Part shown: piece by piece, positions 12 through 42,807 of the stretch
How positions within the stretch are numbered: position 1 is the first letter of the stretch
Layout: each line of letters opens with the position of its first letter
Source: Candidatus Magasanikiibacteriota bacterium
GTDB lineage: Bacteria > Patescibacteriota > Patescibacteriia > Magasanikbacterales > GWA2-37-8
DNA: 64,000 bases
Reading direction: 5' to 3'
NCBI GenBank assembly: GCA_041666745.1
Contig: JBAYGI010000004.1
Span: 3,440 to 67,439 of the forward strand
Made by a program: the position numbers and the translations under genes
The notes under the pieces: generated by a model
What the model saw: only the letters and a program-made list of their open reading frames with translations
Told to the model about the DNA's origin: nothing
The model's database searches: none

Positions 12-773
12 GTGGCAAATAATTATAAAAATCTTTCTCCTTTATTAGCACAAGCATATCAAAAGTTTTGGGCCGAATATACAAGTCGTCAGGTAAAAGT
101 TGGTACGGGCTATTCTGATTTGATACCTCCTGGTGGAAAACTTGAGCTGAATACTTTCCAACCCAAAACTCATGTTGTATATTCTGACGCTAGGGGTGGT
201 ATGATATATGACCTTCCGAAGATTAGAGGTGTTGAGTCATTAGATGAAGCGGTTACTTTTGCGAATATTACAGAGCGAGATGCTGGGCTCGTTGCTAAGT
301 TGGAGGCTGTAATTTATCCACAAGGAATGACGCAGGGTAAAGCGCACATGGAAGATATTTTGCGAAAACAACGTGAATTGGAAGTGCCTGGCGCGGCGTC
401 AAGTTTTGTTATTAGATCAGGCAAAGAAGCGGCTGGTTATTTGCTTATATTGCCAGAGGAATCCGAAGTTGACGGTGGACAAGCTGCCCATGTGTATGAC
501 ATGGCCATTCTGCCAAGTTTCCAAGGAAAAGGATTAGCAAGAAAAATGATTGATCATGTCCTTGATATCGCGACAGCATATAATATGCCGATTGAAGCAG
601 AAGCGCGCGCCAGCACATCATACGCCATGTTAATGAATGAACGGGTGCGTCATTTATTTGAAAGCAGGGGATTTGTATTGACACACAATGAAAAAAAAGA
701 GAAATATTTGGGTGGTGAAGATTTTTATTTTGTGCGGTTTGAAAACAAAGGAGCGCCGGCGCAGGAAGAATAA
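12..773 (+). CDS. GNAT-family N-acetyltransferase domain protein (possibly 5'-partial at window edge)
   Basis: 253-aa ORF with GTG start at nt 12 and no upstream stop before the window edge. C-terminal region carries the acetyl-CoA binding motif of the GNAT fold (ILPSFQGKGLARKMIDHV). GC is moderately above neighbouring DNA. Confidence 0.5.
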   Translation: MANNYKNLSPLLAQAYQKFWAEYTSRQVKVGTGYSDLIPPGGKLELNTFQPKTHVVYSDARGGMIYDLPKIRGVESLDEAVTFANITERDAGLVAKLEAVIYPQGMTQGKAHMEDILRKQRELEVPGAASSFVIRSGKEAAGYLLILPEESEVDGGQAAHVYDMAILPSFQGKGLARKMIDHVLDIATAYNMPIEAEARASTSYAMLMNERVRHLFESRGFVLTHNEKKEKYLGGEDFYFVRFENKGAPAQEE

Positions 774-891
774 ACAGTGTGGATAAAAGTTTGCCAAAAT
801 GCTTCGGGGGGGGGTAAAATAGAACTAAAGCGTACACAATCGATATAATTTATCAAAATCCTTTATTAAAAGGACTAATAAATAAAAATAT

Positions 892-1821
892 ATGGTAGGC
901 GACAAACACAATTCTATGGACGAAAGAAATTCACAACCACCTTCGTCTATCAAAGAAGGCGATAAAGAAAGATTAGACACAATAAAGGCGGAAATACTGA
1001 CAAAACAAAATGAAGTTAGGAATTTGCGTGAACAGTTTTTGGATAAAATCGGAGCGCGGTTTTGTGTGGTGGTTAGTCCAGCGAAAAATTTATTAGATTC
1101 TTGGCAAAACAATCCATTAAAGGATGAAGATATTTTCTGTGTTTTAAGTGTATGTCCAGATGAGAGAGATGAAAGAGGGGAATATAATAACGCAGGAAGA
1201 ATATGTTTGAATGCTGAACTTACAGGTTTAATTTATGAGGTGCACGATGGAGACGTCGAAGAAGGATCCAGTGAAAATTTATTAGATTTAGATAATCTTT
1301 TGCCTCCAGGGACAGAAATTAAATATAGTGAATATGGCAATGGAAATTTGTTAAGTATTCATCCTTCTGAAGAGGTGGCTAATAATTATGGACAGAGAAG
1401 GGCTAAAGAAATAAGACAAGAAGCCTCTGAATTAAAAGAACTAATAAATATTAGAGTTGCAAAATCAAAAGAAAATGCTACAAATTTGGCACAGAGAATA
1501 AATCATTTGATACCAAAAGAGGACATTAATAGAGAATCTTTTTTAGAAACTATCATAGATGCTGTTACTGGACATTATGTAGAAGATGAAAATCATCTTA
1601 CTATATTTATAGTTGAGACAGATAAAGTATTAAATGGTTTAAAAGAATATCATGAAGTAGATGATAAATTTATATTAGCCATTTCTTCGTTGTTAAAAGA
1701 ATATAAATTTTTGAGTGATAACAATTTTGATACTCTTATAGAGCAGAAAGATGAGGATTTTGAAAATGTTGTTTTATTACCTGAACTAAAAGAACAATTA
1801 GGGATGAGTAGATATTATTAG
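892..1821 (+). CDS. hypothetical acidic protein
   Basis: 309-aa ORF with AT-rich codon usage matching the host. No recognisable motif. Followed by a hairpin terminator. Confidence 0.4.
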   Translation: MVGDKHNSMDERNSQPPSSIKEGDKERLDTIKAEILTKQNEVRNLREQFLDKIGARFCVVVSPAKNLLDSWQNNPLKDEDIFCVLSVCPDERDERGEYNNAGRICLNAELTGLIYEVHDGDVEEGSSENLLDLDNLLPPGTEIKYSEYGNGNLLSIHPSEEVANNYGQRRAKEIRQEASELKELINIRVAKSKENATNLAQRINHLIPKEDINRESFLETIIDAVTGHYVEDENHLTIFIVETDKVLNGLKEYHEVDDKFILAISSLLKEYKFLSDNNFDTLIEQKDEDFENVVLLPELKEQLGMSRYY

Positions 1822-1851
1822 GTGAGAGAATGAGTATTACAGAGATATTAA

Positions 1852-1890
1852 AAAAACACCTTTGATATTTTCACAGGCGTTTTTTTATTT
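1852..1890. terminator. hairpin plus T-run between convergent genes
   Basis: AAAAACACCT...AGGCGTTTTT inverted repeat (one mismatch) with T-run. Lies between the + gene ending at 1821 and the - gene ending at 1900. Confidence 0.45.
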
Positions 1891-1899
1891 AAATTTATT

Positions 1900-2958
1900 T
1901 TATTCGTTGTTATTGTCCAAATCCTTTTTGTAGTATTCATCATACATCTCCCAAAACGCAATTGCCAGCGAGGCGATGATCGGTCCGATAATGAACCCAG
2001 AAATTCCAAATACGGCTATACCACCAAGTGTGGCGAATAATACCATCAGCGGATGTAGCTCTGAATCTTTGCCCACCAAAATAGGGCGGATGAGATTGTC
2101 GATTGTTCCAATTACCAACGTACCAAACAAAATCATACAAATACCGATGGTGATGTGTCCGGTTATCAACATGATGATCGCGGCCGGTAGCCAGACAAAA
2201 TAACACCCAATCCCTGGGATAGTGGCTAGTAGCACCATCAACAATCCCCAAATCAGAGCGCCCTGTATTCCAGCCAAAGCAAACATGCCCCAACCAAGTC
2301 CACCTTGAACCAAGCCGATGATCACACTTCCTTTGATCGTGGCTCGTACGGTAGAGGTGAATTTTTTGTAGAGTATTGTTTCATAGCGATCTCCCAATGG
2401 CATTAGATGCATTATTGTTTTTAAAAACTTTTCGCCATCGCGAATAAAGAAAAACAAAGCATAAAGCATGATAAAGAACATCACCGCGAAAATCACTGAA
2501 TTTTGAGTGATTGTTTTGGCGCTATCTAGCAAAAAGCTAGTAATAGACTGATACAGCTCAACCACTTTTTGTGTCAAAAATGATTGATCAATATTGAATT
2601 GAGCGGTATATGGATTTTGTTTTACCCATTGGAGTGTTTGCTGGATGCTATTGTTGATGTCGCCACTCTTGTTGGATGCTGTACTATAAAGATTCAGCGC
2701 TTCTTTTATTACCAACGTACTAAGCCCGATCATCGGCAATACTATAATAGTGAAGATCAAAACCAATATTATTGTAGAACTGAGATTTGGTACCTTTATT
2801 TTTCCATTGAGCCATTTGTACAATGGATAAAAAATACCCGCTAGAATTGCCGCCCAAAATATTGGGTAAAAAAATGGCTTCATTATGGCAAAAAAAGCGG
2901 TGGTCACTATTGCCAGTAAAATAAAAAATATAAAATGACGCATTTTGGAAAAATCCAT
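1900..2958 (-). CDS. AI-2E family transporter (PerM/YhhT-like permease)
   Basis: 352 aa with about 8 predicted TM helices. Size and hydrophobicity pattern fit the AI-2E/UPF0118 family. Confidence 0.6.
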   Translation of the reverse strand: MDFSKMRHFIFFILLAIVTTAFFAIMKPFFYPIFWAAILAGIFYPLYKWLNGKIKVPNLSSTIILVLIFTIIVLPMIGLSTLVIKEALNLYSTASNKSGDINNSIQQTLQWVKQNPYTAQFNIDQSFLTQKVVELYQSITSFLLDSAKTITQNSVIFAVMFFIMLYALFFFIRDGEKFLKTIMHLMPLGDRYETILYKKFTSTVRATIKGSVIIGLVQGGLGWGMFALAGIQGALIWGLLMVLLATIPGIGCYFVWLPAAIIMLITGHITIGICMILFGTLVIGTIDNLIRPILVGKDSELHPLMVLFATLGGIAVFGISGFIIGPIIASLAIAFWEMYDEYYKKDLDNNNE

Positions 2959-3010
2959 ATAATTTGATTTATGTTTATGTGTTATATTTTACCAGAAAAA
3001 ACCAATTAGT

Positions 3011-4423
3011 TCAATTTTTGATTCGAACAATTTCTTTGATGGTTTCTTTGGAAATTACTTGAAATAATAAAATAAAGACAATATAGACTGTCCCGCCAAG
3101 CAAAATCGACAGCACAACATTTGGTAATTGGAAGTGTTGGATGAAAAAATACATAATAAATCCGGATAACAAAATTTTGGCCAGCGATTTTATACGAGGT
3201 AAAAAATCGGTGTGGTAAAAAACCAAAAACATCAGCATCGCGCCGGCATAAATTTCTGAAAAAATAGTTACTCCGGCCGCTCCATAGATTCCAAAACGGG
3301 GAATAAAAATAAAATAACCGACAAGACTTAAAATGGCATCGGATAAATAAATCCAGATAGCTTGCTTTTGTTTGTTGATAGCTAGCGCGGTATAGCCAAA
3401 GACGATTCCCATGCATATTCCCAAAATTGTCCAGCTTAGCCAGGTTAAAATTTTCCCCGATCCGACAAATTCCTGTCCGCCAACCAGTTGCATAATCGGC
3501 TCGGCCAAAGTATAAGCGCCAATCATCATCGGAATTAGTAGTAGAGCCATGAGATCAAAAGACATTTGAAGATGTTTTTTGAATTCAACGTGTTGGGCGC
3601 GAGAATAAAAATACGCTAACAGCGGTGACATAATACCCATAGTGAGCGCGGCTGTTTGTACGATCACATCCAACACCCGATAAGCGGCGCCATAAAAACC
3701 AACCTGAATTTGCGAGCTATAAAGAGGTAAAATCACGCGATCTCCTTGTAAATAAAAAGAATTGAAGATGATACACAGGGCGGTCGGATATATTTTTTGA
3801 AAAATTGCTTGAAAAATTTCACGATCAAAAGTGAACTTAATTTTTGGCATTTTATAAAACAAATATATCGCGTTTACCACCGAGGCGCTGGTCAAGATAA
3901 TCATGAACGGTAAAAAGGCGGCGTTGTGTCTTATTAACAAAATTACTCCGAACAATAAAACGATTCGGCCGATCAATTCGCCGGCGGTAATAATTTGAGT
4001 TTTGAGTTGTTGTTGAAAATATCCGGAAAATACTTGGTTGATGCTAATGGCAAAAAAGGAAATAGAAGTAATCGCCACCGCGATTTTTACTTCAACTGGA
4101 TAGGGGAAGAATAAAAATAACAGAGGGGCTAATCCTTGGAATAAGACGGCGGAAAAAAATCTCAAGGTAAATAAATTGTTTAATAATTTTTCTTTATCAA
4201 ATTTTGGTTCGGCCAGCATATTGGCGGTCGTGATAGCAAAACCAAAATCACTGAAAATGCCGACAAATTGCAAAAAGCCAATCGCGGTAGTGTACCAACC
4301 GAATTTTTCGGCTCCCAAACTGCGGATAATCAAAAAAATTGTCAGCAACCCCAAAATAGTACTGACCACTTTGCCGATTAACTGCACGATAGTATTGTGG
4401 GCGATTTGTCTTTTGATAGTCAT
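3011..4423 (-). CDS. MOP-superfamily polysaccharide/lipid-linked oligosaccharide flippase (Wzx/MurJ-like)
   Basis: 470-aa polytopic membrane protein with 12-14 TM segments, typical of Wzx/MurJ flippases. Confidence 0.55.
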   Translation of the reverse strand: MTIKRQIAHNTIVQLIGKVVSTILGLLTIFLIIRSLGAEKFGWYTTAIGFLQFVGIFSDFGFAITTANMLAEPKFDKEKLLNNLFTLRFFSAVLFQGLAPLLFLFFPYPVEVKIAVAITSISFFAISINQVFSGYFQQQLKTQIITAGELIGRIVLLFGVILLIRHNAAFLPFMIILTSASVVNAIYLFYKMPKIKFTFDREIFQAIFQKIYPTALCIIFNSFYLQGDRVILPLYSSQIQVGFYGAAYRVLDVIVQTAALTMGIMSPLLAYFYSRAQHVEFKKHLQMSFDLMALLLIPMMIGAYTLAEPIMQLVGGQEFVGSGKILTWLSWTILGICMGIVFGYTALAINKQKQAIWIYLSDAILSLVGYFIFIPRFGIYGAAGVTIFSEIYAGAMLMFLVFYHTDFLPRIKSLAKILLSGFIMYFFIQHFQLPNVVLSILLGGTVYIVFILLFQVISKETIKEIVRIKN

Positions 4424-4487: not shown

Positions 4488-5450
4488 ATGAAAAAATATC
4501 TTTTAGTTTTGTTTTTTAGCTTGATTTTAGCTTTGCCGGTACGGGCGGAAGAAATTTTGGCTACCAGTAGCCTTGAACGGGAACTGGTCGAAATGCCGTC
4601 AATTCGGGTGGGTTTGTTGAAAACCAAAGATCCGATAAAGTTTAAGTCGGAGATTGATTATGAAATATATAGTGGCGATGAGGTGGTTGGGCTATTGTCG
4701 GCAGGCGAGGAGGCGAAAATTAGTTATAAAAATGGTAAATATTTTTTGACTAGCGATAGTTTTGATTTGGAAAGTGAAACTTTTTGGCGTTTGAAACCGA
4801 CTGAAGACAGCAGTGTGTTTGAATTACCCGGATGTAAACGAACGATTACCGGTCGTAAACTGGATTTTTGCGCTTATCGCGGGGTATTGGAATATCGTTA
4901 TGGGAAAACTAGCAAGATGCCGTATTTAATAAACGAACTACCGCTCGAGGATTATATGAAGGGTATCGCTGAGACGGACAACAATTCGGCCGAAGGATAT
5001 ATCAAAGCGGTGTTGGTAGCGGCGCGCAGTTATGCTTATAAAAACATAAGTTTTAGTCCGCCAACTGAAAAAAGACTGTTTGATGTCTTTGCTTCTACTG
5101 TTGATCAACTTTATTTGGGCTATAATTCCGAAAAGCAAATGCCTAGGGTAGCGCAATTTGCCCAAGAAACAGCCGGGGAAATGGTGACATACAATGGTAA
5201 TGTAGTGACAACACCATATTTCAGTCGAAGTAATGGCAAAACCAAAACCTGGAAAAACAGTCAAGGAAAAAATGATCGACCGTGGTTGGTGAGTGTGGAG
5301 TGTCAATATGATAAAAAGAAAAAACAGTTGGGGCACGGTATTGGTATGAGCACACATGACGCGCTAATGCGGGCGACAAAAGATGGCTGGGATTATATAC
5401 AACTGCTAAAACTTTATTATTCGGATACGGAAGTGGAAAAGGTATATTAA
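4488..5450 (+). CDS. SpoIID/LytB-domain protein (cell-wall amidase enhancer family)
   Basis: Signal peptide MKKYLLVLFFSLILALPVRA. Family motifs NELPLEDYMKGIAE...AVLVAARSYA and TPYFSRSNGKT match SpoIID/LytB. Confidence 0.7.
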   Translation: MKKYLLVLFFSLILALPVRAEEILATSSLERELVEMPSIRVGLLKTKDPIKFKSEIDYEIYSGDEVVGLLSAGEEAKISYKNGKYFLTSDSFDLESETFWRLKPTEDSSVFELPGCKRTITGRKLDFCAYRGVLEYRYGKTSKMPYLINELPLEDYMKGIAETDNNSAEGYIKAVLVAARSYAYKNISFSPPTEKRLFDVFASTVDQLYLGYNSEKQMPRVAQFAQETAGEMVTYNGNVVTTPYFSRSNGKTKTWKNSQGKNDRPWLVSVECQYDKKKKQLGHGIGMSTHDALMRATKDGWDYIQLLKLYYSDTEVEKVY

Positions 5451-5667
5451 AATTAAAAAAAATATGGAAAGCTATATTTCGTTGGTAAATAAGGGTGCTA
5501 GACTTACCTTGGTGTGTCGTTCCATGCAAATATTTACTATTACTGAGCCGGAAGTAGATCAGGATGATTCAAACTGGGAGACGGTAGTAGATTTTACCAA
5601 AATTAAACATGGTGGTGTAAATATAAAAGATGTCTTGAAACGAAATTAGTTGTATTGTAGAATAAAA

Positions 5668-6408
5668 TTATAACAGTTCCCATATTATGTTAAAAGTATT
5701 CATCATCAAAGAACTCACTAGTTCATTTTTAATAAGAGTGCCACCGAATGGTTTTTGAAAAGTTATAAAAGCAATTTGAGATTTTGTAATAATCACTCCA
5801 GCATCAAATTTTATATTAGTAGGTAGGAATTTAATTTTATTATTGAAATTTTTTTCAAATTTTTTAAAATGGTCGGCAGTTTTTGAAGGAACTGTTATAA
5901 TTTTTAAATCTAAATTTAGTCGTGCTCTTTTTTGAGCTACCTGTTCAGCAAAATTTTTATCCATGTCAATAAATTTTTGCGAATCAGAAATAATGTAATG
6001 CGGATCTTTGAGATGTGTGTCAGTTAGTAAGTTATTATAAATCGCTTTTATACCAACAAGACCTTGATAATAGGTTATATTATTTGATGTATCTGTATGT
6101 TTAGTGACATCCAGTAATTCTGGCAGTTGTTTGTCAAAAAAATTTAATAGGGTTTCTGTCGTTGAGCGTAAATACTCAGGACTTTGAGCTTTAAATACAT
6201 TTTTAAAACCGCATGTTTCTTGAAACACCAACCCCTTCTTCTGCAATTCACGAAGCACAGGATATACAGTGGTGCGTTTTATACCGGAGAAATCACTAAT
6301 TTTGGATATCTTACTCGCATCTGATGATAATAAAGCAAAATAAACTAAGGCCTCTTTTTCGTTTAAGCCCATTTTTTGGAACAGATCAATGATTTGTTTT
6401 TTGTCCAT
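5668..6408 (-). CDS. TrmB-family transcriptional regulator
   Basis: N-terminal winged-HTH of TrmB type (GLNEKEALVYFALLSSDASKISKISDFSGIKRTTVYPVLRELQKKGLV). 246 aa. Confidence 0.65.
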   Translation of the reverse strand: MDKKQIIDLFQKMGLNEKEALVYFALLSSDASKISKISDFSGIKRTTVYPVLRELQKKGLVFQETCGFKNVFKAQSPEYLRSTTETLLNFFDKQLPELLDVTKHTDTSNNITYYQGLVGIKAIYNNLLTDTHLKDPHYIISDSQKFIDMDKNFAEQVAQKRARLNLDLKIITVPSKTADHFKKFEKNFNNKIKFLPTNIKFDAGVIITKSQIAFITFQKPFGGTLIKNELVSSLMMNTFNIIWELL

Positions 6409-6423
6409 AGTGATTGTGACATT

Positions 6424-6438
6424 ATTGTTGACAACAAT
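6424..6438. promoter_or_regulatory. perfect 15-bp palindrome ATTGTTGACAACAAT immediately upstream of the trmB-like start (candidate operator)
   Basis: Read directly from the sequence, 16 nt upstream of the start codon at 6408 (minus strand). A related half-site ATTGTTGTTCAC lies at about 6504. Confidence 0.3.
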
Positions 6439-6566
6439 TTATAGTGTAATGTTAGCCGTAATAACAATATTATCATACCACTTGTTAACATATTTGTCAA
6501 ATATTGTTGTTCACGATATTATGTGTGTACTGCACAATCATGTGTAGATCAATCAGGGAGGGTGTC

Positions 6567-7154
6567 ATGTTGGCACTCATTCGACACAGCGCCTATTATG
6601 TTGGCGCACAGCAGGCCCAAGTTGGGTGTTCGGACGAAGCATACGCATCGGCACGATATGCGTACGACATGTTCACCCAGCCACTGACCGTAAACGGCGT
6701 CAAGCTGGCCATTCAGTGGGGAGTCGGAAGGACGTATTCCGCCGTGTATGCCTCGCCGGCAATTCGCGCAATTCAGACGGCTGCGGCGGCCGTGGGCGTG
6801 GAGGAAACGAGCGTAATCGTAGATCCGCACTTGTTCTACACTCCGGGTTGTGGTGCGCGTGAGAAGGCGATGAAAGCCCTCTTCATGCGTCAGGGGTACA
6901 ACCCCCCGAGCGCATGGTACTTGGATCAAAATCAGGATGACGTACGGGAGTTCATGGCGGCAGTGGACGATCTCACCATGCTCGTCATCCAGTTGTCTGT
7001 GCGCGACGAGCAGATCCTAGCTGTCTCACATTCTGTCTTTTTGGGGGCTGTTTGTGCGAAACTGACGAACGCCCCAAAAGACTGTCTCAACAAGACGTTC
7101 GGTGTTTGTGAGGGGTTCCTTGCAGATAACGGCGTCTTCAAGGGCTATGTCTAG
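6567..7154 (+). CDS. histidine phosphatase (PGAM-like) family protein encoded in a high-GC island
   Basis: ATG at 6567 preceded by GGGAGGG SD. N-terminal LIRHSAYY (RH catalytic motif) and C-terminal AVSHSVF (SH motif), spaced as in the histidine phosphatase superfamily. About 55-60% GC versus the AT-rich host. The motifs are degenerate, so this is a tentative call. Confidence 0.4.
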   Translation: MLALIRHSAYYVGAQQAQVGCSDEAYASARYAYDMFTQPLTVNGVKLAIQWGVGRTYSAVYASPAIRAIQTAAAAVGVEETSVIVDPHLFYTPGCGAREKAMKALFMRQGYNPPSAWYLDQNQDDVREFMAAVDDLTMLVIQLSVRDEQILAVSHSVFLGAVCAKLTNAPKDCLNKTFGVCEGFLADNGVFKGYV

Positions 7155-7163
7155 GAGGTAAAT

Positions 7164-7199
7164 GGGGGGGGGTGATCAACCATGTGATTACCCCCCCCC
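7164..7199. repeat. G9-N18-C9 homopolymer-flanked hairpin
   Basis: GGGGGGGGG TGATCAACCATGTGATTA CCCCCCCCC read directly, at the right edge of the high-GC island. A second G9 run is at 806-814. Confidence 0.9.
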
Positions 7200-7224
7200 A
7201 GCCTATTCCTTTATTAAAATATTT

Positions 7225-8259
7225 ATGTTGCGAGAAATTAAAAATAAAAAAATTTTAAAAATAAATTGGGAACATATATTTACAAGAAACGCGCCACTTT
7301 TAATGGTTGATTTTCATCGACAGGCGTTTTTTTATGCTACACATAAATGGTTGTCAGACGCAGTGCTGTTTATAAAATATGAGTCAGACAAACAGGGCAA
7401 TATGAGACTGCATTATGAGGCCGGTTGGCGAAAAAGAATTAAACAACAAATAATTAAAACAAATAATTTAGAAAGAGAAAGAATTATAAATGATATTTTT
7501 AGTTGTTTGGACAAAGCAAGACTCAATTTAATTGACACAATACAGACAAATCAAAAATCGGCAAAAGTAGGAATTTTTATTAAGAAATGCACTGATCAAA
7601 TAATTGAATATAATGCGGCCTATTTAATTATTTTTATTTATTTTAATATACTATACGAGGTTGACAAAAAATTATTTTTGAAATACAAAAAATCCATTGA
7701 AACAGCAAGAAATGCACGAGCGTTATTTAAAGATGTCGAAGCATTTTTTGTTTCTTTTTTTAAAGATAATAATTATAGCAATCCAGACGTTGTACTTTGG
7801 TTGCTGTGCGACGAAGTTATGCGACTGCTGACCGGAAGTATTAAATTGGATATTGATATGCTTACAAAAAGACGAAGCAAATATTGTATGATTTGTTCTA
7901 AACACAAGATTCACCACTTTGAATATGGAAAAAACTTAGAACTTATAGGAGAGGCGACGTATAAAAATGGCGTAGTATACGGTTTTGTGAAGAAAATATT
8001 ATCTTTGGAAGACTTGAATAAAATTAATCACCCAGACGATATAGTGGTGTCTTATATGACTAGCACGTGGCATTTTCCAGTATTAAATAAAGCTAAAGCA
8101 ATATTAACCGAAGAAGGCGGAATTTTAAGTCATGCAGCAATTATTAGTAGAGAGCTAAAAATACCTTGCCTAATTAATGTTAAAGAAATTATTAAACACA
8201 CCGAAGATGGTGACTATGTTAAGATTGATACAGAAAATGAGACCGTTGAAATTTTTTAA
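7225..8259 (+). CDS. PEP-utilising enzyme mobile (swivel phosphohistidine) domain protein
   Basis: C-terminal ILTEEGGILSHAAIISRELKIPCLINV matches the PEP-utilisers mobile domain of PpsA/PPDK/rifampin phosphotransferase. N-terminal ~270 aa are unrecognised. The ATG at 7225 is preferred over the ATG at 7162, which lies inside the poly-G hairpin. Confidence 0.55.
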   Translation: MLREIKNKKILKINWEHIFTRNAPLLMVDFHRQAFFYATHKWLSDAVLFIKYESDKQGNMRLHYEAGWRKRIKQQIIKTNNLERERIINDIFSCLDKARLNLIDTIQTNQKSAKVGIFIKKCTDQIIEYNAAYLIIFIYFNILYEVDKKLFLKYKKSIETARNARALFKDVEAFFVSFFKDNNYSNPDVVLWLLCDEVMRLLTGSIKLDIDMLTKRRSKYCMICSKHKIHHFEYGKNLELIGEATYKNGVVYGFVKKILSLEDLNKINHPDDIVVSYMTSTWHFPVLNKAKAILTEEGGILSHAAIISRELKIPCLINVKEIIKHTEDGDYVKIDTENETVEIF

Positions 8260-8276
8260 AGCCCGACTTTTTATAA

Positions 8277-8816
8277 TTATTTCCCGCTATGAAATTTTTT
8301 GTCTTCCGAAGATAGTTCGATAATTACTTCGCGTATTTTATCCGGACGGTGGACGTTGTGGATGATAAATTTTGGAATTGGACCGGCGGTTTGAAGATAA
8401 ACATCGCCGTAATTAAAAATGGTTGGAAAGAAGCCGTGCACTTCCGAAGAAACATCTTGAATCTGATAGAGATCTACCTCAGCCACAGTGCGGGCAAACA
8501 ATGAAATTTGACGAATGTCCACCAAGCGATCGTTGGTAATAATCCAAGCGTCCAAATAAAATTCTACAAAAAAAGAATAGAAAAATAAAAATGTTGATAA
8601 ATAATAAGCACTGGCAAAAAGTATTATGAGCGGAAAGGTAACCGGGTTTTGCATGGTATTTACAAAGGCGGTAGAAAATAGCCAATACACAACTATCGGT
8701 ATTAACAGTATGATTATAAAAATCATCAGGTATGGAAAAAAGGTGATCCCATGTCGTCTTAATGTATATATTATTTTTTCGTAACTTTTAATTTTTACTA
8801 CAGAATCTAAGCTCAT
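8277..8816 (-). CDS. membrane protein with bacterial PH (bPH_2/YdbT-like) domain
   Basis: Two N-terminal TM helices followed by a ~100-aa soluble domain, the architecture of bPH_2 proteins. Confidence 0.4.
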   Translation of the reverse strand: MSLDSVVKIKSYEKIIYTLRRHGITFFPYLMIFIIILLIPIVVYWLFSTAFVNTMQNPVTFPLIILFASAYYLSTFLFFYSFFVEFYLDAWIITNDRLVDIRQISLFARTVAEVDLYQIQDVSSEVHGFFPTIFNYGDVYLQTAGPIPKFIIHNVHRPDKIREVIIELSSEDKKFHSGK

Positions 8817-14385: not shown

Positions 14386-14496
14386 TTCAAAAAACCACCT
14401 GTCGCCAATAAATTCAAATTTTTAAATTCATTGGCGAATGCAGGTGGTGATGAGACCTCCCGCATTCGGTTGCGGGAGAAAAAGAGCGGGGTGGTG

Positions 14497-14895
14497 TTAG
14501 ACCAGAACGAACGGGTGGATGTCCTGGTCATTCTCGTTGAATGCCTCGTTGGCATAATAGACGAGAACGGAACCGGGCGCCAGTACGAAGGCGTGTGCAG
14601 TGCCAGGCTCGACCATCACGTGGAAGGGGGCGGAGATGGCGGTGTGTTGGACGTCGAGGACGAACATCTTGGTGTCGGCATGAAGGAACAACCCGTTTCC
14701 ATGCTTGAGATCAAACGTCTCGGTCGTCCTCTCGTGGAAGTGGTTTCCGAGCGGAAACGCACTTTTCACCACCAGCACCTTGACTGAGAAGCCGACTTCT
14801 GGGCAATTTAGTTCGAAAATGGCTCGTCGACCATCTTCGTGCACCTTGGTAAATCCACGTGCGAGTATTGCCCTCACTTGGTCTTCTACATTCAT
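14497..14895 (-). CDS. cupin-fold protein, WxcM/FdtA-like sugar ketoisomerase/epimerase family (high-GC island)
   Basis: 132 aa with a GNHFHE...H cupin metal motif and a C-terminal acidic tail like FdtA/QdtA. About 55% GC. Other ORFs overlap on both strands, as expected by chance in GC-rich DNA. Confidence 0.4.
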   Translation of the reverse strand: MNVEDQVRAILARGFTKVHEDGRRAIFELNCPEVGFSVKVLVVKSAFPLGNHFHERTTETFDLKHGNGLFLHADTKMFVLDVQHTAISAPFHVMVEPGTAHAFVLAPGSVLVYYANEAFNENDQDIHPFVLV

Positions 14896-15018
14896 GACGT
14901 ATCATCCAAAGCCCAATGTAGCGGGCAGGATGTTTTTTAAATACCATATTTTGACCAATTTGTCAATATTGGAAGGATTGTGTAGAATACCAATTATGAA
15001 ATTTGTAATAAATATTTT

Positions 15019-15881: not shown

Positions 15882-16352
15882 ATGAGACCAAAAAAATGGA
15901 CAGAGCAACAGCTTAGAGAAATTGTTCCAACAGTTACTAGTGTGCGTCAAGTTTTAAGAGAACTTGGGCTTAAAGAAGCTGGTGGAAATTATGCGCAGAT
16001 AAAAAAATTTTTAAAAGAATATAAAATAGATATCTTGCATTTTACTGGTGTTGGTTGGAATATAGGAATGAAAATGCAGATTAACACAGCTAAACCGTTA
16101 AAAGAAATACTGATTAAAAATAGTAGTTATCAAAGTTTTAAGTTAAAAAAAAGATTGTTTGCAGAGAAAATAAAAAAACCATATTGTGAATTGTGTGGAT
16201 GGGCAAAGTTGTCGATAGACGGTCGAGTACCTTTAGAGTTAGATCATATAAATGGTGATCACTCAGATAATAGGATTGACAATTTACGAATTTTATGTCC
16301 TAATTGTCACAGTTTACAGTTAACTCATAGAGGTAGAAACAGAAAAAAATAA
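15882..16352 (+). CDS. free-standing HNH endonuclease
   Basis: C-terminal ELDHINGDHSDNRIDNLRILCPNCHS is a canonical HNH motif with zinc-finger Cys/His. The stop codon lies 5 nt before tRNA-Leu. Confidence 0.8.
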   Translation: MRPKKWTEQQLREIVPTVTSVRQVLRELGLKEAGGNYAQIKKFLKEYKIDILHFTGVGWNIGMKMQINTAKPLKEILIKNSSYQSFKLKKRLFAEKIKKPYCELCGWAKLSIDGRVPLELDHINGDHSDNRIDNLRILCPNCHSLQLTHRGRNRKK

Positions 16353-16357
16353 AATAT

Positions 16358-16437
16358 GCTCAGGTGGCGGAATGGTCTACGCAAGAGACTTAAAATCTCT
16401 CGCCGCAAGGCTTGCGGGTTCGAGTCCCGCCCTGAGC
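16358..16437 (+). tRNA. tRNA-Leu (anticodon TAA), class II with long variable arm
   Basis: Acceptor GCTCAGG/CCTGAGC, anticodon stem AGAGA/TCTCT, loop CTTAAAA, long variable arm CGCCGCAAGGCTTGCGGG, T-loop GTTCGAGTC. CCA is not encoded. Confidence 0.85.
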
Positions 16438-16440
16438 ACT

Positions 16441-16473
16441 AAAAATACTACTTTTATGAAGTAGTATTTTTAT
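16441..16473 (+). terminator. intrinsic terminator after tRNA-Leu
   Basis: Perfect palindrome AAAAATACTACTT ttatg AAGTAGTATTTTT. Confidence 0.6.
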
Positions 16474-16530
16474 TTGTTGTGTTATTAAAATCGTGATACT
16501 ATTACTCTTTATCCTAAGTAAATAATTTTT

Positions 16531-17400
16531 ATGCCTCCAGATAAATATTCCGCTGTTTGGGTTTCACACACCTCTATTTCTGATTTTTTGAAATGTCCGC
16601 GGGCTTATTTTTTGAAAAATGTTTATCGCGATCCAGCGACCAAACACAAAATAAAAATAATGTCGCCGACGTTGGCTTTGGGGCAGTGTGTGCATGAGGT
16701 TTTGGAATCATTGTCGCAGTTGCCTCGTGGGGGTCGGTTTAGTGAGCCGTTGCCAAATAAATTTGAAAAAGTTTGGGAAAAAATAAAAGGAGAAAAAGGC
16801 GGGTTTCCAAACGATGACACTGAATATCAATATAAAAAACGTGGCTTGGACATGTTGGCGCGCGTGTATAATCATCCGGGACCAATAAACAATCTGTCAG
16901 TAAAAATTCAAATGGATTTGCCGTATTATTGGTTGTCCGAAGAAGATAATATAATTTTGTGCGGTAAAGTCGATTGGCTGGAATATTTTCCAGACACAGA
17001 TAGTGTACACATCATAGATTTCAAGACCGGTAAAATTCAGGAAGAAGAAAGTTCGTTGCAGTTGCCGATATATAGTTTGTTGGTTTCCAAATGTCAAAAA
17101 AGAAAAGCCACCAAGGCCAGTTATTGGTATTTGGCGGAAAATGATAACCTAACTGAAAAACCATTACCGGATTTGGAAGAATCGGAGAAAAAAATATTGG
17201 AGATCGCCAGACAGATGAAAGTGGCTCGACAGATTAACCGTTTCAAATGCCCGAATGGCGAAGATGGATGTTTTGCTTGCAAGCCGTTTGAATCCATACT
17301 AAATAAGACGGCCAAATTGGTCGGCCAAGATGAATATGGCGCCGATGTCTACATTATTGATAGTATTGAGAAAGAAAACAGGGAAGGGGAGATTTTGTAA
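16531..17400 (+). CDS. PD-(D/E)XK nuclease superfamily protein (Cas4/RecB-like, Fe-S Cys motifs)
   Basis: IIDFKTGK (D-x-K), QLPIYSL (QxxxY), N-terminal Cys (LKCPRAYF) and C-terminal CPNGEDGCFAC cluster, as in Cas4/AddB nuclease domains. No cas genes nearby. Confidence 0.6.
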   Translation: MPPDKYSAVWVSHTSISDFLKCPRAYFLKNVYRDPATKHKIKIMSPTLALGQCVHEVLESLSQLPRGGRFSEPLPNKFEKVWEKIKGEKGGFPNDDTEYQYKKRGLDMLARVYNHPGPINNLSVKIQMDLPYYWLSEEDNIILCGKVDWLEYFPDTDSVHIIDFKTGKIQEEESSLQLPIYSLLVSKCQKRKATKASYWYLAENDNLTEKPLPDLEESEKKILEIARQMKVARQINRFKCPNGEDGCFACKPFESILNKTAKLVGQDEYGADVYIIDSIEKENREGEIL

Positions 17401-17504: not shown

Positions 17505-17858
17505 ATGAGGAGCTTCTGGGAAAAAAACAAAGTACACGTGGTGATATACATGTTCATCGTCGTTAGTGTCGCCCTGTTCGTGTGGCATGGTGAGTTTTTG
17601 GATGGTCTTCGACTCGAACGCGAGAAGATCGTCGTAGAACAAGCCTTGGCCAAGCAGGCACGAGCTAAGATGGTCGCCAAGGAGGAGGTGATCGACTCGC
17701 TTCAGTATTTCCGTGATCCGCGAGATCCGCTTGACCCGAGATGTTTCTTGTCGGTTGGGTTGGGGGCTGCGACCGGTGTGACACTTCTCGTGTCCGTTGA
17801 CTGCGCTTCGATCCCGCCAGATCTCCTGCGAGATGTGTTTTCACCCAAGCAGGAGTAG
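17505..17858 (+). CDS. hypothetical protein (one TM) in a high-GC island
   Basis: 117 aa, GAGGAAAGAG SD-like sequence upstream, about 57% GC. No recognised motif. ORF length alone is weak evidence in GC-rich DNA. Confidence 0.3.
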   Translation: MRSFWEKNKVHVVIYMFIVVSVALFVWHGEFLDGLRLEREKIVVEQALAKQARAKMVAKEEVIDSLQYFRDPRDPLDPRCFLSVGLGAATGVTLLVSVDCASIPPDLLRDVFSPKQE

Positions 17859-17861
17859 GGC

Positions 17862-18059
17862 GTGTGGGGCAACTGTTCTTTCAACTATGTTTTTGAATGC
17901 CCATTCCCGCCAATAACTTGGCGAGATGGTATCCAAAAGCATGAGCTGGAGAGGGTGGGAGTTTCGGCTCTGCGCCTCTCCAAACCCTCTGTCGGTTTTG
18001 CCGGCACTGATGAGTCCGACGACTGCTCAACCAAGGACGAAAGGGAAAACTGTGGATAA
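17862..18059 (+). CDS. hypothetical small protein in a high-GC island
   Basis: 65 aa, GTG start 4 nt after the upstream stop, AGGAG upstream. Weak evidence. Confidence 0.2.
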   Translation: MWGNCSFNYVFECPFPPITWRDGIQKHELERVGVSALRLSKPSVGFAGTDESDDCSTKDERENCG

Positions 18060-18153
18060 CTATTGGTTAGTTTTTACAAAATAAGGCTCTTTTTACTTTA
18101 TATTAGCCAAAAACAGGCAAAAAACTTGACAATTTTATATAAACTAGCTTCAT

Positions 18154-24800: not shown

Positions 24801-25764
24801 CACGTTGCGTACTTTCCACGCCGGTGGTGTGGCTGGTGGCGATATCACTCAAGGTTTGCCTCGTGTAGAAGAATTGTTCGAATGTCGTCCTCCAAAACGT
24901 AAAGCAGTTTTGTCTGAAGTAGATGGTAAAGTGGAAATCGAAGATGCGGACGGCAAGATTGTAACTTCGCCAACCGGTAAAAAGATTTTTGAAGGCCGTC
25001 GTGGACAAAAAATCCTCAAAGTTCATTTTGAAGGCATGGAAGAAACCAAAATCAAATTTGATAGTGGCGATGAAGTGATGGTAAAAGACGGAGATGAGGT
25101 TGAGCCGGGTCAAACTATCTTGGTGCGCGGTGCTTCCGGTGAAGAAGTGGTTGCCAAATATCAAACCAAAGTTAAATTGGGTAAAAATAATTTGCTGTTA
25201 ACTTATGTTGGTCCAAAGGTACGTGAGTATATCATACCGCTTGGGTATAAGTTGTATGTAAAAGAGGGTGAACAAGTAGAAAAAGGACAACAAATGACTG
25301 ACGGTAGTATCAACTTGCAAGAATTGTTTGAGCTCAAAGGACGTCCGGCGGTTCAACGTTATATTTTGCAAGAAGTACAAAATATTTATTCTTCTCAAGG
25401 TCAGAAAGTAAACGACAAACACGTGGAATTGCTTATCTGCCAAATGTTTAGTCGTGTACAAATAGAAGAAGCCGGTGATACCGAATTGTTACCTGGTGAA
25501 GTGGTGGAAAAAGCACAATTTATGTATGCCAACCAGATGGCCAAAAAGAATGGTGGAAAATTGTCCACTTCCAAAGAATTATTGTTTGGTGTATCGCGCG
25601 TGGCACTATCCACTCAAAGTTTCTTATCGGCTGCTTCCTTCCAAGAAACCGCCAAAGTATTGATCAATACCGCATTAACCGGCAAGATTGACTATCTCGA
25701 AGGTTTGAAAGAAAATGTGATTATTGGGCGATTGATACCGGCTGGTACTGGGTTTAAACAGTAA
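21886..25764 (+). CDS. rpoC: DNA-directed RNA polymerase subunit beta'
   Basis: Zn-finger CYCGKYKK...CDKCGVEV, catalytic NADFDGD, bridge helix and trigger loop regions. Confidence 0.97.
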   Translation: MNHDSNKNTNFDAIRLRLASPEIIRGWSFGEVNKPETINYRTQKPEKGGLFAEEIFGPTKDWECYCGKYKKIRYKGIVCDKCGVEVTTSLVRRERMGHIELAAPVAHIWFLRSVPSKVGLILDVPVQALEKVIYFAAFIISHVDEEGKRKASDQMRQEYKTKKKQIEHESETEIKKANDQKLGAEFLEKVQHETDRKQQALEQDFVAADKELKELQVLKILSENRYQELSLRFGHLFEAGIGAEAVYNLLERINIPDTIKQIVDEQVTSKGAKLERLIRRHKLLNSLMVNKIRPEWTIMKCIPVIPPDLRPMVALDGGRFATSDLNDLYRRVINRNNRLRRLLDLDAPEVICRNEKRMLQEAVDALIDNNARHAKTVLAATGQKRQLRSLADILKGKQGRFRQNLLGKRVDYSGRSVIVVGPQLNIDECGLPKRMALELFKPFIMGEIIKRELAHNVRSASRYIEAEHDEVWDILEELTQNTRVMLNRAPTLHRLGIQAFHPRLVEGKAIQLHPLCCTAFNADFDGDQMAVHLPLTAEARWEAENLMASEKNLLKPATGQPVITPKQDIALGCFYLTNYHSSDTAPVKRFFSSIKDAKLAYKCRVVTLHERIKVRFSESELNKFPEGTNKLIETSLGRILFNEIVPDKIAYYNETITVKKLAEIIRFCLEFYDQEATARFLDELKNLGYRYVTKSGYSLGIADFPKIEEKTSLTLIADKQVAEVEEQYQEGLLTQAERHAKILEIWTSTKDKIVANNQKNLDKNGPVYAMIESGARGTWGQLGQVIGMKGLVVSPSGDIIELPVKGNFKEGFDVLEYFISSHGTRKGLSDTALRTANAGYLTRRLVDVSQDVVILEEDCGDTTGEVFTVAQSKEMGEKLSDRVWGRYVISEVKVGDKVFVKAGEVIDDKTARAIDEAGVNEVHVHSVLQCKLPKGFCRKCYGYDLAHNKPVEFGTAVGIIAAQSLGEPGTQLTLRTFHAGGVAGGDITQGLPRVEELFECRPPKRKAVLSEVDGKVEIEDADGKIVTSPTGKKIFEGRRGQKILKVHFEGMEETKIKFDSGDEVMVKDGDEVEPGQTILVRGASGEEVVAKYQTKVKLGKNNLLLTYVGPKVREYIIPLGYKLYVKEGEQVEKGQQMTDGSINLQELFELKGRPAVQRYILQEVQNIYSSQGQKVNDKHVELLICQMFSRVQIEEAGDTELLPGEVVEKAQFMYANQMAKKNGGKLSTSKELLFGVSRVALSTQSFLSAASFQETAKVLINTALTGKIDYLEGLKENVIIGRLIPAGTGFKQ

Positions 25765-25782: not shown

Positions 25783-25812
25783 TGTTTAACAGCACTCTTT
25801 TTTTGTTGACTT
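25783..25812 (+). terminator. intrinsic terminator after rpoC
   Basis: AAGAGTG tttaacag CACTCTT followed by TTTTTTG. Confidence 0.55.
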
Positions 25813-25866
25813 TTTGTTTTGTTGTGCTATGATTTTGGTGGTTCGTTCTTTCGTTTAGGAGGGAAC

Positions 25867-26547
25867 ATGGGAAAGAGAAAAGGTTGGTCCTGGGGCAAGT
25901 TGTCACTAGGACGTGAAGTGGTTCGTGCTCTGTTTCACTGGCTCTGTGGTATGGCAATGTGGTTGATAATGCACCCATTGCCGATACCGGACGTAGCTGT
26001 CTGGATCTGCGGAGTCGTAATTTTCGCCACCTTCATGGTGTTTCGGCACGTGCGTGGTTCGCGCGCGGTTCGTTTCGCCAGTTTCAACCACGTCATCGAT
26101 CGATGGTTGGCGAGGGATGTCGAAAAAGGACAAATGACGGCTGCATGGCCAACGTACGTTGGTTGCCTATTCGCATGGGTAATCATCTGTGCGTGTAATA
26201 CCCGTTGGATCGGAGCGCTCACCGCCTTGCTGTTTGGCATGGTGGATCCGCTCGCTCGATTGGGTATGAAGTGGCCAATAACCAAGCGGTTCAAGAACGA
26301 GAAGTCGTGGGGTGGGCTCCTATTTGGCTTTCTGGGTGGTTTGCTGGCGGTCGGTCTGATCGCCATCGTTTGCCACTGCGGAGTGCCACTGGTCGCCGCA
26401 CCAAGGTTCGAAATCCTCGTTATCGTGTACGCAGTCGGAGTCGTGTCTGCGTCACTCTTTGAGCTTCGCGGAGGGAGATGGGACAATTTCATCATACCTG
26501 CCGGGACGACCGTCGCAATGACGGTTGCATACTATGCTCTCCTCTAA
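25867..26547 (+). CDS. integral membrane protein, CTP-dependent polyprenol/diacylglycerol kinase-like (DUF92/SEC59/CdsA-like motif), high-GC island
   Basis: AGGAGG SD 5 nt before the ATG at 25867. 5-6 TM helices. A KRFKNEKSWGGLLFGFLGG motif resembles the CTP-transferase family signature. About 57% GC. Weak family call. Confidence 0.35.
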   Translation: MGKRKGWSWGKLSLGREVVRALFHWLCGMAMWLIMHPLPIPDVAVWICGVVIFATFMVFRHVRGSRAVRFASFNHVIDRWLARDVEKGQMTAAWPTYVGCLFAWVIICACNTRWIGALTALLFGMVDPLARLGMKWPITKRFKNEKSWGGLLFGFLGGLLAVGLIAIVCHCGVPLVAAPRFEILVIVYAVGVVSASLFELRGGRWDNFIIPAGTTVAMTVAYYALL

Positions 26548-26560
26548 TCCCAGGAAAATT

Positions 26561-26596
26561 CCGCCGACCCCCGAGGGTCGGCGTTGCGTTTTTTGG
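26561..26596 (+). terminator. intrinsic terminator
   Basis: GCCGACCC ccga GGGTCGGC followed by GTTGCGTTTTTTGG. Confidence 0.6.
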
Positions 26597-26647
26597 TTAA
26601 ATACGGTAGATTATAGGTAGTCAATTTCAATTTTTATAGAAAATTAT

Positions 26648-28547: not shown

Positions 28548-28642
28548 GCTCGGTCGCCTATTGCTTTTCGCTTTTTTCGACCGCGAGGTCGAAAGGATGA
28601 GCCTCGGGCTCATAACCCGCTCAAAACAATAGGTGACCGAGC
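28548..28642. repeat. structured palindromic intergenic element, copy 1 (outer 16-bp stem, inner stem TCGACC-gcga-GGTCGA, conserved core with hairpin ATGAGCC-tcg-GGCTCAT)
   Basis: Read directly from the sequence. Followed by a T-run. A 62-nt core is shared with 42641-42733 in inverted orientation. Confidence 0.85.
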
Positions 28643-42629: not shown

Positions 42630-42640
42630 TATTAAAAAAT

Positions 42641-42733
42641 ACCGGCTACAATTACCTTTGAGCGGGTTATGAGCCCGAGGCTCATCCTTTTGCCCTCGCG
42701 GGCAAAAAAAGCGAAAAGGTTGTTGTAGCCGGT
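42641..42733. repeat. structured palindromic intergenic element, copy 2 (inverted relative to copy 1; inner stem TTGCCC-gcga-GGGCAA)
   Basis: Read directly from the sequence. Flanked by an A-run and a T-run. Lies 3' of ftsH. Confidence 0.85.
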
Positions 42734-42807
42734 ATTTTTTGTTTTTCAGAAATGTGCTATAATATATTTAGTCAGGCAAGTTTAATTGCCAATTGTTATT
42801 TGTATCT

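Follow-up and report, generated by a model that had tools for sequence, protein, structure and literature searches.

A GC-rich stem-loop with homopolymer arms behind an apparently acquired histidine-phosphatase gene in a Magasanikbacteria genome

The locus and its hairpin

The DNA described here is a 64,000-nt stretch (hereafter the window) of an AT-rich genome from the Magasanikbacteria, a lineage of the candidate phyla radiation (CPR), and corresponds to positions 3458-67457 of the ENA contig ERZ27249449:k141_269178 (85,443 bp, MEGAHIT k141). Our subject is a hairpin, with nine consecutive G in one arm and nine consecutive C in the other, at the right-hand edge of a high-GC island, where it separates a gene for a histidine phosphatase-like protein from a host gene for a protein with a PEP-utilizers domain. 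The island extends over ~6550-7203, with a GC content of 50-61% as against 25-35% in its flanks. The coordinates of the features are given in Table 1.

Table 1. Features at the island, its hairpin and a second G9 run (positions in the window)
Feature	Coordinates	Strand	Remarks
Promoter-like site, TTGCCA-18-TAAAAT	791..820	+	10/12 matches; only match in 600-1000; 1.3 expected by chance
Sigma-70-like promoter, TTGTCA-17-TATTAT	6494..6522	+	In AT-rich host DNA at left island edge
Shine-Dalgarno site, GGGAGGG	6556..6562	+	4 nt before island ORF; duplex with generic anti-Shine-Dalgarno sequence -11.4 kcal/mol (host mean +0.6)
Island ORF, 195 aa, histidine phosphatase superfamily	6567..7154	+	Pfam PF00300, E 3.3e-6, above gathering cut-off; NCBI MFA6547801.1
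AGGAGG, Shine-Dalgarno-like hexamer	7153..7158	+	Overlaps TAG 7152-7154; 3 nt before ATG 7162; pairs with TTCCT 7206-7210 in the fold
Hairpin left arm, T + G9 + TGATCA	7163..7178		Sequence and fold
Hairpin loop, ACCATG, 6 nt	7179..7184		Fold
Hairpin right arm, TGATTA + C9 + A	7185..7200		Sequence and fold; foreign GC-rich DNA stops at ~7203
PEP-utilizers host gene, phosphohistidine swivelling domain, 344 aa	7225..8259	+	30% GC; no Shine-Dalgarno site; gene callers, Pfam

The open reading frame (ORF) of the island differs in composition from the host genes, with a GC content of 0.56 and a GC content at third codon positions (GC3) of 0.65, compared with ~0.39 and ~0.35. Its product matches the Pfam family His_Phos_1, and an RH motif (LIRHS) and a later SHS are kept, as judged by eye. 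In the NCBI record 'MAG: Candidatus Magasanikbacteria bacterium' (MAG, metagenome-assembled genome), the two adjacent proteins are consecutive entries (MFA6547801.1, named histidine phosphatase family protein, and MFA6547802.1).

Read from 7150 to 7203, the sequence at the right edge of the island is TCTAGGAGGTAA ATGGGGGGGGG TGATCAACCATGTGATTA CCCCCCCCC AGCC, the approach to the hairpin being GTC TAG GAGGTAA. A preliminary description of this DNA had pointed out the G9-N18-C9 hairpin at the edge of the island and considered its 9-bp stem very unusual. Both the sequence (G9 at 7164-7172, an 18-nt spacer at 7173-7190, C9 at 7191-7199) and the GC profile bear this out, except that the stem is longer than was thought: pairing continues beyond the homopolymers to form an unbulged stem of 16 bp (7163-7178 with 7185-7200) that includes one G.U pair. 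Outside this stem, a symmetric 5x5 internal loop is followed by a further AGGAG/TTCCT pairing. The stop codon of the phosphatase ORF ends at 7154, as had been described, and the hairpin begins 8 nt past it; it ends 24 nt ahead of ATG 7225, the start of the PEP-utilizers gene, and within ~3 nt of the boundary between GC-rich and AT-rich DNA. An ATG at 7162 had been noted directly before a G9 run; the ATG is there, but its G is the first of the run, so that eight G follow it.

No other 50-nt fold in the whole 64 kb, on either strand, is as stable as that of the hairpin, which reaches -37.4 kcal/mol compared with -26.1 for the next best and a mean of -6.3 (standard deviation 3.8). Its homopolymers are equally exceptional. 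G runs of length 5 occur 14 times in the window, those of lengths 6-8 not at all and those of length 9 twice, the second lying at 806-814 as previously described; for C the corresponding counts are eight runs of 5, one of 6 and one of 9. The pattern G9-N6..30-C9 did not arise once in 100 dinucleotide shuffles of the window.

The hairpin is present as a single copy in 77 kb of contig including the window. No match was found in JGI metagenome contigs, whether for the hairpin core or for the hairpin with variable run lengths plus flanks, nor in GTDB representative genomes for the core or for an adjoining unique 34-mer; absence of the latter implies that the MAG itself is not in that set. Rfam searches of 6400-7400 and 700-950, with E values up to 10, returned only noise, far below gathering scores. 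A U/T tract is absent 3' of the stem, where the tail reads GCCTATTCCT and has 3 T among the first 8 nt, and a terminator scan of 5400-8600 found no sites.

Origin of the island and possible role of the hairpin

The clearest mark of a foreign origin of the island is its Shine-Dalgarno (SD) signal. In a census of the 43 gene starts in the window, an SD core was found upstream of just one of the 39 host genes, for which the mean duplex with the anti-SD sequence is +0.6 kcal/mol, but upstream of three of the 4 high-GC island ORFs (GGGAGGG, AGGAGGG and GAGGAAAGAG). Translation in the host lineage seems to begin on AT-rich leaders that lack structure; a literature search on SD sites and horizontal gene transfer found nothing. 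Coupling this signal with the raised GC and GC3 and the lack of any close relative of the protein, we read the island as what appears, from its sequence, to be a single foreign gene cassette in the 5' leader of a host gene.

When 5.8 billion clustered proteins were searched with the island protein, only the protein itself was matched; an exhaustive search of 1.8 billion representatives yielded a best non-self match of 30% identity (E 4.5e-7), with relatives at no more than ~36% identity. The gene contexts of two of these relatives were uninformative as to the donor, and blastn of the island against plasmids and phages gave no match. Neither a target-site duplication nor terminal direct or inverted repeats at the island edges exceeded what shuffled sequences produced. 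A close relative of the host genome that would allow comparison with and without the island was not found, the best homologue of the PEP-utilizers protein having 40% identity over 31% of the query.

The foreign DNA does not stop with the phosphatase ORF. The perfect AGGAGG that had been reported ahead of ATG 7162 is present, and because only one in 39 host genes has an SD site, we assign AGGAGG-ATG (7153-7164) to the foreign DNA rather than to the start of the host gene. It is probably the start of whatever gene came after the phosphatase in the donor.

The window contains at least three further high-GC islands with a single ORF each, at 14424-14884 (ORF on the minus strand), 17505-18073 and 25850-26600, with a GC content of 50-55%. 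Each is intergenic and located behind a host-type -35/-10 pair (14960-14988 and 25806-25833 by scan, others by eye), and two of the three have a GC-rich hairpin 14-18 nt past the stop codon. That of the fourth island (ORF 25867-26547; island 1 being that of the phosphatase) is CGCCGACCC-CCGA-GGGTCGGCG followed by a T-run, and that of the minus-strand island (here taken as 14497-14895) is CTCCCGCA-N6-TGCGGGAG, with no T-run. A 3' hairpin therefore looks normal for such cassettes, with the G9/C9 hairpin as an extreme case. The proteins of the other islands match no Pfam or NCBIfam family, except for one sub-threshold match to Polysacc_synt_C. A fifth small GC-rich stretch, likewise intergenic but beyond the window (L136 12810-13040), has tiny ORFs only.

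The island ORF and the PEP-utilizers gene have just one promoter-like site ahead of them, the sigma-70-like promoter at the left edge, and no other was found on the plus strand within 6600-7350. With no promoter-like site in 6600-7225 and a gap of 24 nt between hairpin and start codon, the island has apparently landed in the leader of the PEP-utilizers gene, which must then be read through the island and the hairpin. Our tentative explanation, which we place ahead of the others without regarding it as secure, is that the acquired phosphatase cassette ends in this hairpin as its 3' stem-loop, which acts as a leaky terminator or an mRNA stabiliser, roles to which the lack of both a U-tract and a downstream promoter points. 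The cassette would comprise an SD site, the phosphatase ORF, a second SD-ATG stub and, as its last 38 nt, the hairpin. It would be transcribed together with the PEP-utilizers gene from the promoter-like site at 6494-6522, starting near 6530. As an intercistronic structure the hairpin may pause or partly terminate RNA polymerase, may shield the phosphatase message from 3' exonucleases and may silence the leftover SD-ATG, while read-through would suffice for the host gene to be expressed from ATG 7225. The homopolymer arms were probably inherited from the donor and would have no separate role. The super-stable terminator suggested in the preliminary description agrees with the stability of the fold and its position 8 nt past the stop codon, but not with the missing U-tract; nor can termination be complete, given that the downstream gene lies 24 nt away and has no promoter-like site of its own.

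Several points weigh against this explanation. The host terminators, such as those that follow the gene for ribonucleotide reductase, the long ORF that ends at 25764 and the PD-(D/E)XK gene, have T-runs, whereas the hairpin has none. The transcript ends, the read-through and the stabilisation, like every statement made here about RNA, are deduced from DNA sequence. The searches yielded no donor with which to show that the hairpin arrived together with the gene, and because the hairpin occurs once and in no other scanned genome or metagenome, neither conservation nor covariation lends support to a function. Finally, the explanation accounts neither for homopolymer arms of exactly nine nor for the expression-relevant positions of the other long G runs of the contig.

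Ordinary bacterial genes surround the locus, including those for an AI-2E transporter, a flippase, SpoIID, a TrmB-like regulator, bPH_2, RuvB and ribonucleotide reductase; the size and position of two long neighbouring ORFs suggest that they are rpoB and rpoC. The intergenic DNA left of the island has divergent promoter-like sites, of which the minus-strand one serves the TrmB-like gene, and in this divergent region ATTGTTG/CAACAAT palindromes at 6423-6438, 6460-6471 and 6500-6511 are probably operator sites of the TrmB-like regulator. Over 6567-8259, the histidine-phosphatase gene is directly upstream of, and probably co-transcribed with, the gene for a protein whose sole recognisable domain is a phosphohistidine swivelling domain. 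This pairing could be functional, a phosphohistidine phosphatase with its target, or a coincidence.

Two further elements of the window lie away from the island. A two-copy element at 28548-28642 (plus strand) and 42640-42734 (minus strand) has a 60-nt conserved core, consisting of CTTTTCGCTTTTTT, a small covarying hairpin and AAAGGATGAGCCTCGGGCTCATAACCCGCTCAAA, that is nested in long outer stems of unrelated sequence. Rfam offers no match to the element, which may be either a small structured RNA or an insert directed at hairpin loops. At 15882-17400, an HNH endonuclease gene abuts tRNA-Leu(UAA) (16358-16439) and a PD-(D/E)XK nuclease gene, which may form a small mobile or defence-related cluster.

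Alternative explanations

An explanation that we consider unlikely, although it is the main rival to the one above, is that the long G and C runs are hypermutable simple-sequence contingency tracts, in which slipped-strand changes in length switch expression. Poly-G and poly-C contingency loci are found in promoter spacers or 5' coding regions in Neisseria, Haemophilus, Campylobacter and Helicobacter. The contig, from a genome that is AT-rich, resembles them in having runs of 8-9 G or C, one in a -35/-10 spacer, one at a frame switch and one after an SD-ATG. All four runs concerned (G9, C9, G9 and G8) reach the length of 7-8 nt or more associated with slippage. In favour of such tracts, the lengths of G runs leap from 5 to 9 with none between, and every run of at least 7 in 77 kb of contig occupies a 5' regulatory or 5' coding position.

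The G8 at contig positions 551-558 (L134), 2.9 kb upstream of the window, is exactly at the frame switch between two called genes, one of 111 aa (240-575) and one of 1232 aa (532-4230) with a C-terminal GNAT domain. The frame of the first closes 5 codons past the G8, that of the second opens 8 codons before it, and G7 or G10 in its place would merge the two into one ORF, 1329 or 1330 aa long; G8 is also what the Logan assembly has. The G9 at 806-814, which lacks a C-run partner and a significant fold (z -1.4), makes up the 3' half of the spacer (18 nt) in the TTGCCA/TAAAAT site, 71 nt upstream of an orphan 309-aa ORF (892-1821); with G8 the spacer would have the optimal length of 17 nt. At the hairpin, the combinations G9+C9, G8+C7, G8+C10, G11+C7 and G11+C10 keep an open frame between ATG 7162 and the downstream gene, while the remaining 20 of 25 length pairs (7-11 each) meet a stop within 3-32 codons. 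An SD-ATG-C7 arrangement also occurs on the minus strand of another GC-rich stretch (L136 12982-13003), where AGGAGA, 5 nt, ATG and C7 repeat the layout of 7153-7172; the ORFs there have only 8-24 codons at any run length. Changes in tract length would alter the spacer around 806-814 from 18 to 17 or 19 nt, open or close the upstream 1330-aa ORF and, at the hairpin, affect the frame of ATG 7162 or the stem. In its fullest form, which we rate as slightly less likely still, the idea would make the G8, G9 and G9/C9 runs in the first 11 kb of the contig true tracts that give a CPR bacterium stochastic on/off or graded expression of the 1330-aa GNAT-domain protein (through frame), the 309-aa orphan (through promoter spacer) and the phosphohistidine-domain gene (through leader hairpin).

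However, no variation in tract length was seen: both assemblies agree, although they probably derive from the same reads, and the Logan contigs are unbroken at the tracts. Length polymorphism, the defining property of known tracts, is not seen in the two consensus assemblies. The promoter match at 791-820 is weak, given the number expected by chance, and by our estimate a random tract in that region would fall inside the spacer in ~9% of cases. Positions at which length would alter expression exist on paper for the G9 at 806-814 and for the G8; at the hairpin the frame depends on run lengths, but the start is occluded. As ATG 7162 is hidden in a stem of about -37 kcal/mol and the host makes no use of SD sites, a translational switch is implausible there, and a one-base change in either run hardly alters the 16-bp stem. 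The G9 and C9 of the hairpin also pair with each other, which known tracts do not, and homopolymeric phase variation in CPR bacteria was not found in the literature searched.

We think it improbable that the hairpin is instead a recombination structure left by, or used for, the insertion of foreign DNA. It might then be the subterminal hairpin of an HUH/Y1-type element (an IS200/IS605 right end, a REP-like element or a rolling-circle nick site of the form ...ATTA/C), or else a fold-back (snap-back) inverted duplication in which a broken donor fragment was joined just past the ATGGG of the next donor gene. The recombination scar proposed in the preliminary description gains from the location of the hairpin at the foreign/host junction, where GC-rich DNA ends ~3 nt past the stem, but loses from the absence of flanking direct or inverted repeats. 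There is also no hairpin at the left edge. The hairpin is placed as an IS200/IS605 right end might be, ~3 nt from the boundary, with neither a left-end hairpin nor a repeat. The 77 kb showed no TnpA, and the annotated neighbours include no Rep, TnpA or other HUH gene. The occurrence of the element as a single copy in 77 kb, with no match in the collections scanned, counts against a recombination structure as well.

A recombination structure would be favoured by the way the foreign DNA finishes in the stub (SD plus ATG) of a next gene. This stub, GTCTAGGAGGTAA-ATGGG (7148-7166), aligns over 19 nt with the start of the fourth island, GTTTAGGAGGGAACATGGG (25852-25871), a similarity equalled in 19 of 1000 shuffles. 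The sole detectable homologue of the membrane protein of that island (P0136, 39% identity) adjoins a His_Phos_1 gene on an unrelated contig of 47% GC (L138 7230-8720), an adjacency that hints at a functional pair of phosphatase and membrane protein. Islands 1 and 4 may accordingly once have been one operon or two-gene unit, broken where the G run begins, and the 19-nt similarity may be a remnant of that contiguous unit or merely the likeness of two ribosome sites. Against a common unit, such likeness is expected of any two strong ribosome sites, and the L138 phosphatase is only remotely related to that of island 1 (E 0.43).

The rolling-circle variant draws on CRESS-DNA virus origins, the stem-loops with the Rep/HUH nick site NANTATTAC. 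Several small IMG/VR contigs of CRESS type have G9/C9 stems around a TAGTATTAC nick site, and the hairpin shares their ...ATTA-C9 ending, closing with TGTGATTA-C. We rejected such an origin: TGTGATTAC matches the nonanucleotide consensus at only 7/9 positions, its bases are paired in the stem rather than exposed in a loop, the setting is a bacterial chromosome, and no HUH domain is found in the neighbours (TrmB-like, His_Phos_1, PEP-utilizers, bPH_2, RuvB, RNR). The CRESS-like contigs themselves, 2.2-6 kb in length (L027, L046, L092, L124 and L126-L132; mostly samples 33000200xx), have an origin loop, TAGTATTAC or CAGTATTAC, flanked by these homopolymer stems. An integron attC site was rejected on inspection, there being no GTTRRRY or RYYYAAC at the stem ends and the stem being perfect, without bulges or extrahelical bases. 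A G-quadruplex and a serine-recombinase att site were likewise dropped on inspection, their defining sequence features being absent. A large serine recombinase of 513 aa (Resolvase, Recombinase and Zn_ribbon_recom domains) is encoded near the contig end (L136 20116-20807, contig ~76.2 kb); nothing was found to connect it with the islands.

It is very improbable that ATG 7162 is a real start, giving either an extended PEP-utilizers protein of 365 aa (MGGGDQPCDYPPPAYSFIKIF-MLRE...) or a short Gly/Pro-rich leader whose PPP stalling regulates the downstream gene. The perfect AGGAGG, an ORF that continues, open and in frame, into the host gene, and the PPP motif encoded by the C9 run all speak for such a start. 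Yet only 3 nt separate the SD from the ATG, the U and G of the start codon are within the 16-bp stem, and the host does not use SD sites. The 344-aa product from ATG 7225 is called in NCBI, JGI, ENA and Logan, whereas no gene on record has the 365-aa product. The N-terminal extension, moreover, crosses the composition boundary and so cannot be ancestral to the host protein. Earlier doubt about this ATG was thus well placed.

We can hardly credit the remaining option, raised in the preliminary description, that the hairpin is a sequencing or assembly artefact, whether from the dark cycles that yield poly-G in two-colour Illumina chemistry or from a palindromic chimera joining two organisms: it is interior to an 85-kb contig that holds both flanks, its runs are exactly 9 nt rather than tens of bases, and the palindrome includes unique, non-homopolymer bases. 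The poly-G run is all that it shares with a two-colour artefact; such an artefact could not produce a palindrome that runs into unique TGATCA/TGATTA, nor the complementary C9. Over 12.3 kb, a stretch that takes in G8, G9, G9 and C9, the two Logan contigs (SRR6484324) and the ENA contig show 100% identity, and both Logan (k31) and MEGAHIT (k141) traverse the 38-nt palindrome and its unique flanks. This identity from a second assembler makes an artefact or join very unlikely, although both assemblies are probably built from the same reads, so that their agreement shows independence of assembler and not of sample. The NCBI MAG, a different assembly with an 83,583-bp contig, also encodes both flanking proteins consecutively. 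The island is a well-formed intergenic unit, with a host-like promoter, an SD site, an intact Pfam-positive ORF and a hairpin; there is no homopolymer at its left edge, and three or four comparable islands occur without homopolymers. On the other side, poly-G/poly-C palindromes are common at contig ends in public assemblies, the composition of the island is foreign, all the DNA examined may come from one read set, and the hairpin is missing from JGI metagenome contigs even though sample 3300037810 contains the organism. A scan of IMG/VR for G9-N-C9 served as negative control: artefact-type runs there are long, ragged G(n)C(n) blocks a few dozen bases from contig ends, and many viral contigs (loci L004-L123, e.g. 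L013, L019, L048 and L061) start or finish in such palindromes, which look artefactual. No mention of SRR6484324, ERZ27249449 or MFA6547801 was found in the literature searched.

Significance and comparison with known systems

Taken as the 3' stem-loop of an acquired cassette, the hairpin itself is a curiosity, one more GC-rich stem-loop ending an acquired gene and not a new kind of element. Its practical value is as a warning to annotators that the AGGAGG-ATG is a decoy start and the poly-G no assembly error. Of broader interest is the setting, an AT-rich, SD-less Magasanikbacteria genome with what appear to be four or five recent single-ORF, high-GC, SD-bearing inserts behind host-type promoters and with almost no public relatives. 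The few long G/C runs of the contig all sit where a change in length would affect expression; if read data showed heterogeneity in their length, such a finding would count as evidence of phase variation in a CPR lineage of episymbionts.

Among known systems, two offer the closest parallels. The REP and BIME elements of enterobacteria are intercistronic palindromes that stabilise mRNA, occur in many copies per genome and are linked to RAYT transposases. Like them, the hairpin is a palindrome of ~38 nt between co-oriented genes, just past the upstream stop codon, and the expected effect would be the same, namely protection of the upstream message with partial attenuation. Unlike them, it is not repeated within the 77 kb and has no match in the metagenome and genome collections.

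Intrinsic (Rho-independent) terminators combine a stable GC-rich stem-loop with a U-tract; 'I-shaped' hairpins without a U-tract have been described in high-GC bacteria and are debated. The hairpin resembles them as a GC-rich, perfect stem-loop a few nucleotides past a stop codon and the strongest local fold, and exact G9-loop-C9 hairpins are found directly after stop codons in phage contigs, some of them T-tailed (e.g. L112 and L122). It differs in lacking a U/T tract, in its atypical homopolymer arms and in its position, which is not the end of a transcription unit followed by a new promoter: the next start is 24 nt away, with no promoter-like site in 6600-7225, and full termination would silence a downstream gene that has no promoter of its own. 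By analogy, then, the hairpin would come closest in its mode of action to an intrinsic terminator or an intercistronic stabiliser, as the GC-rich 3' stem-loop of an acquired gene that happens to have unusual homopolymer arms.

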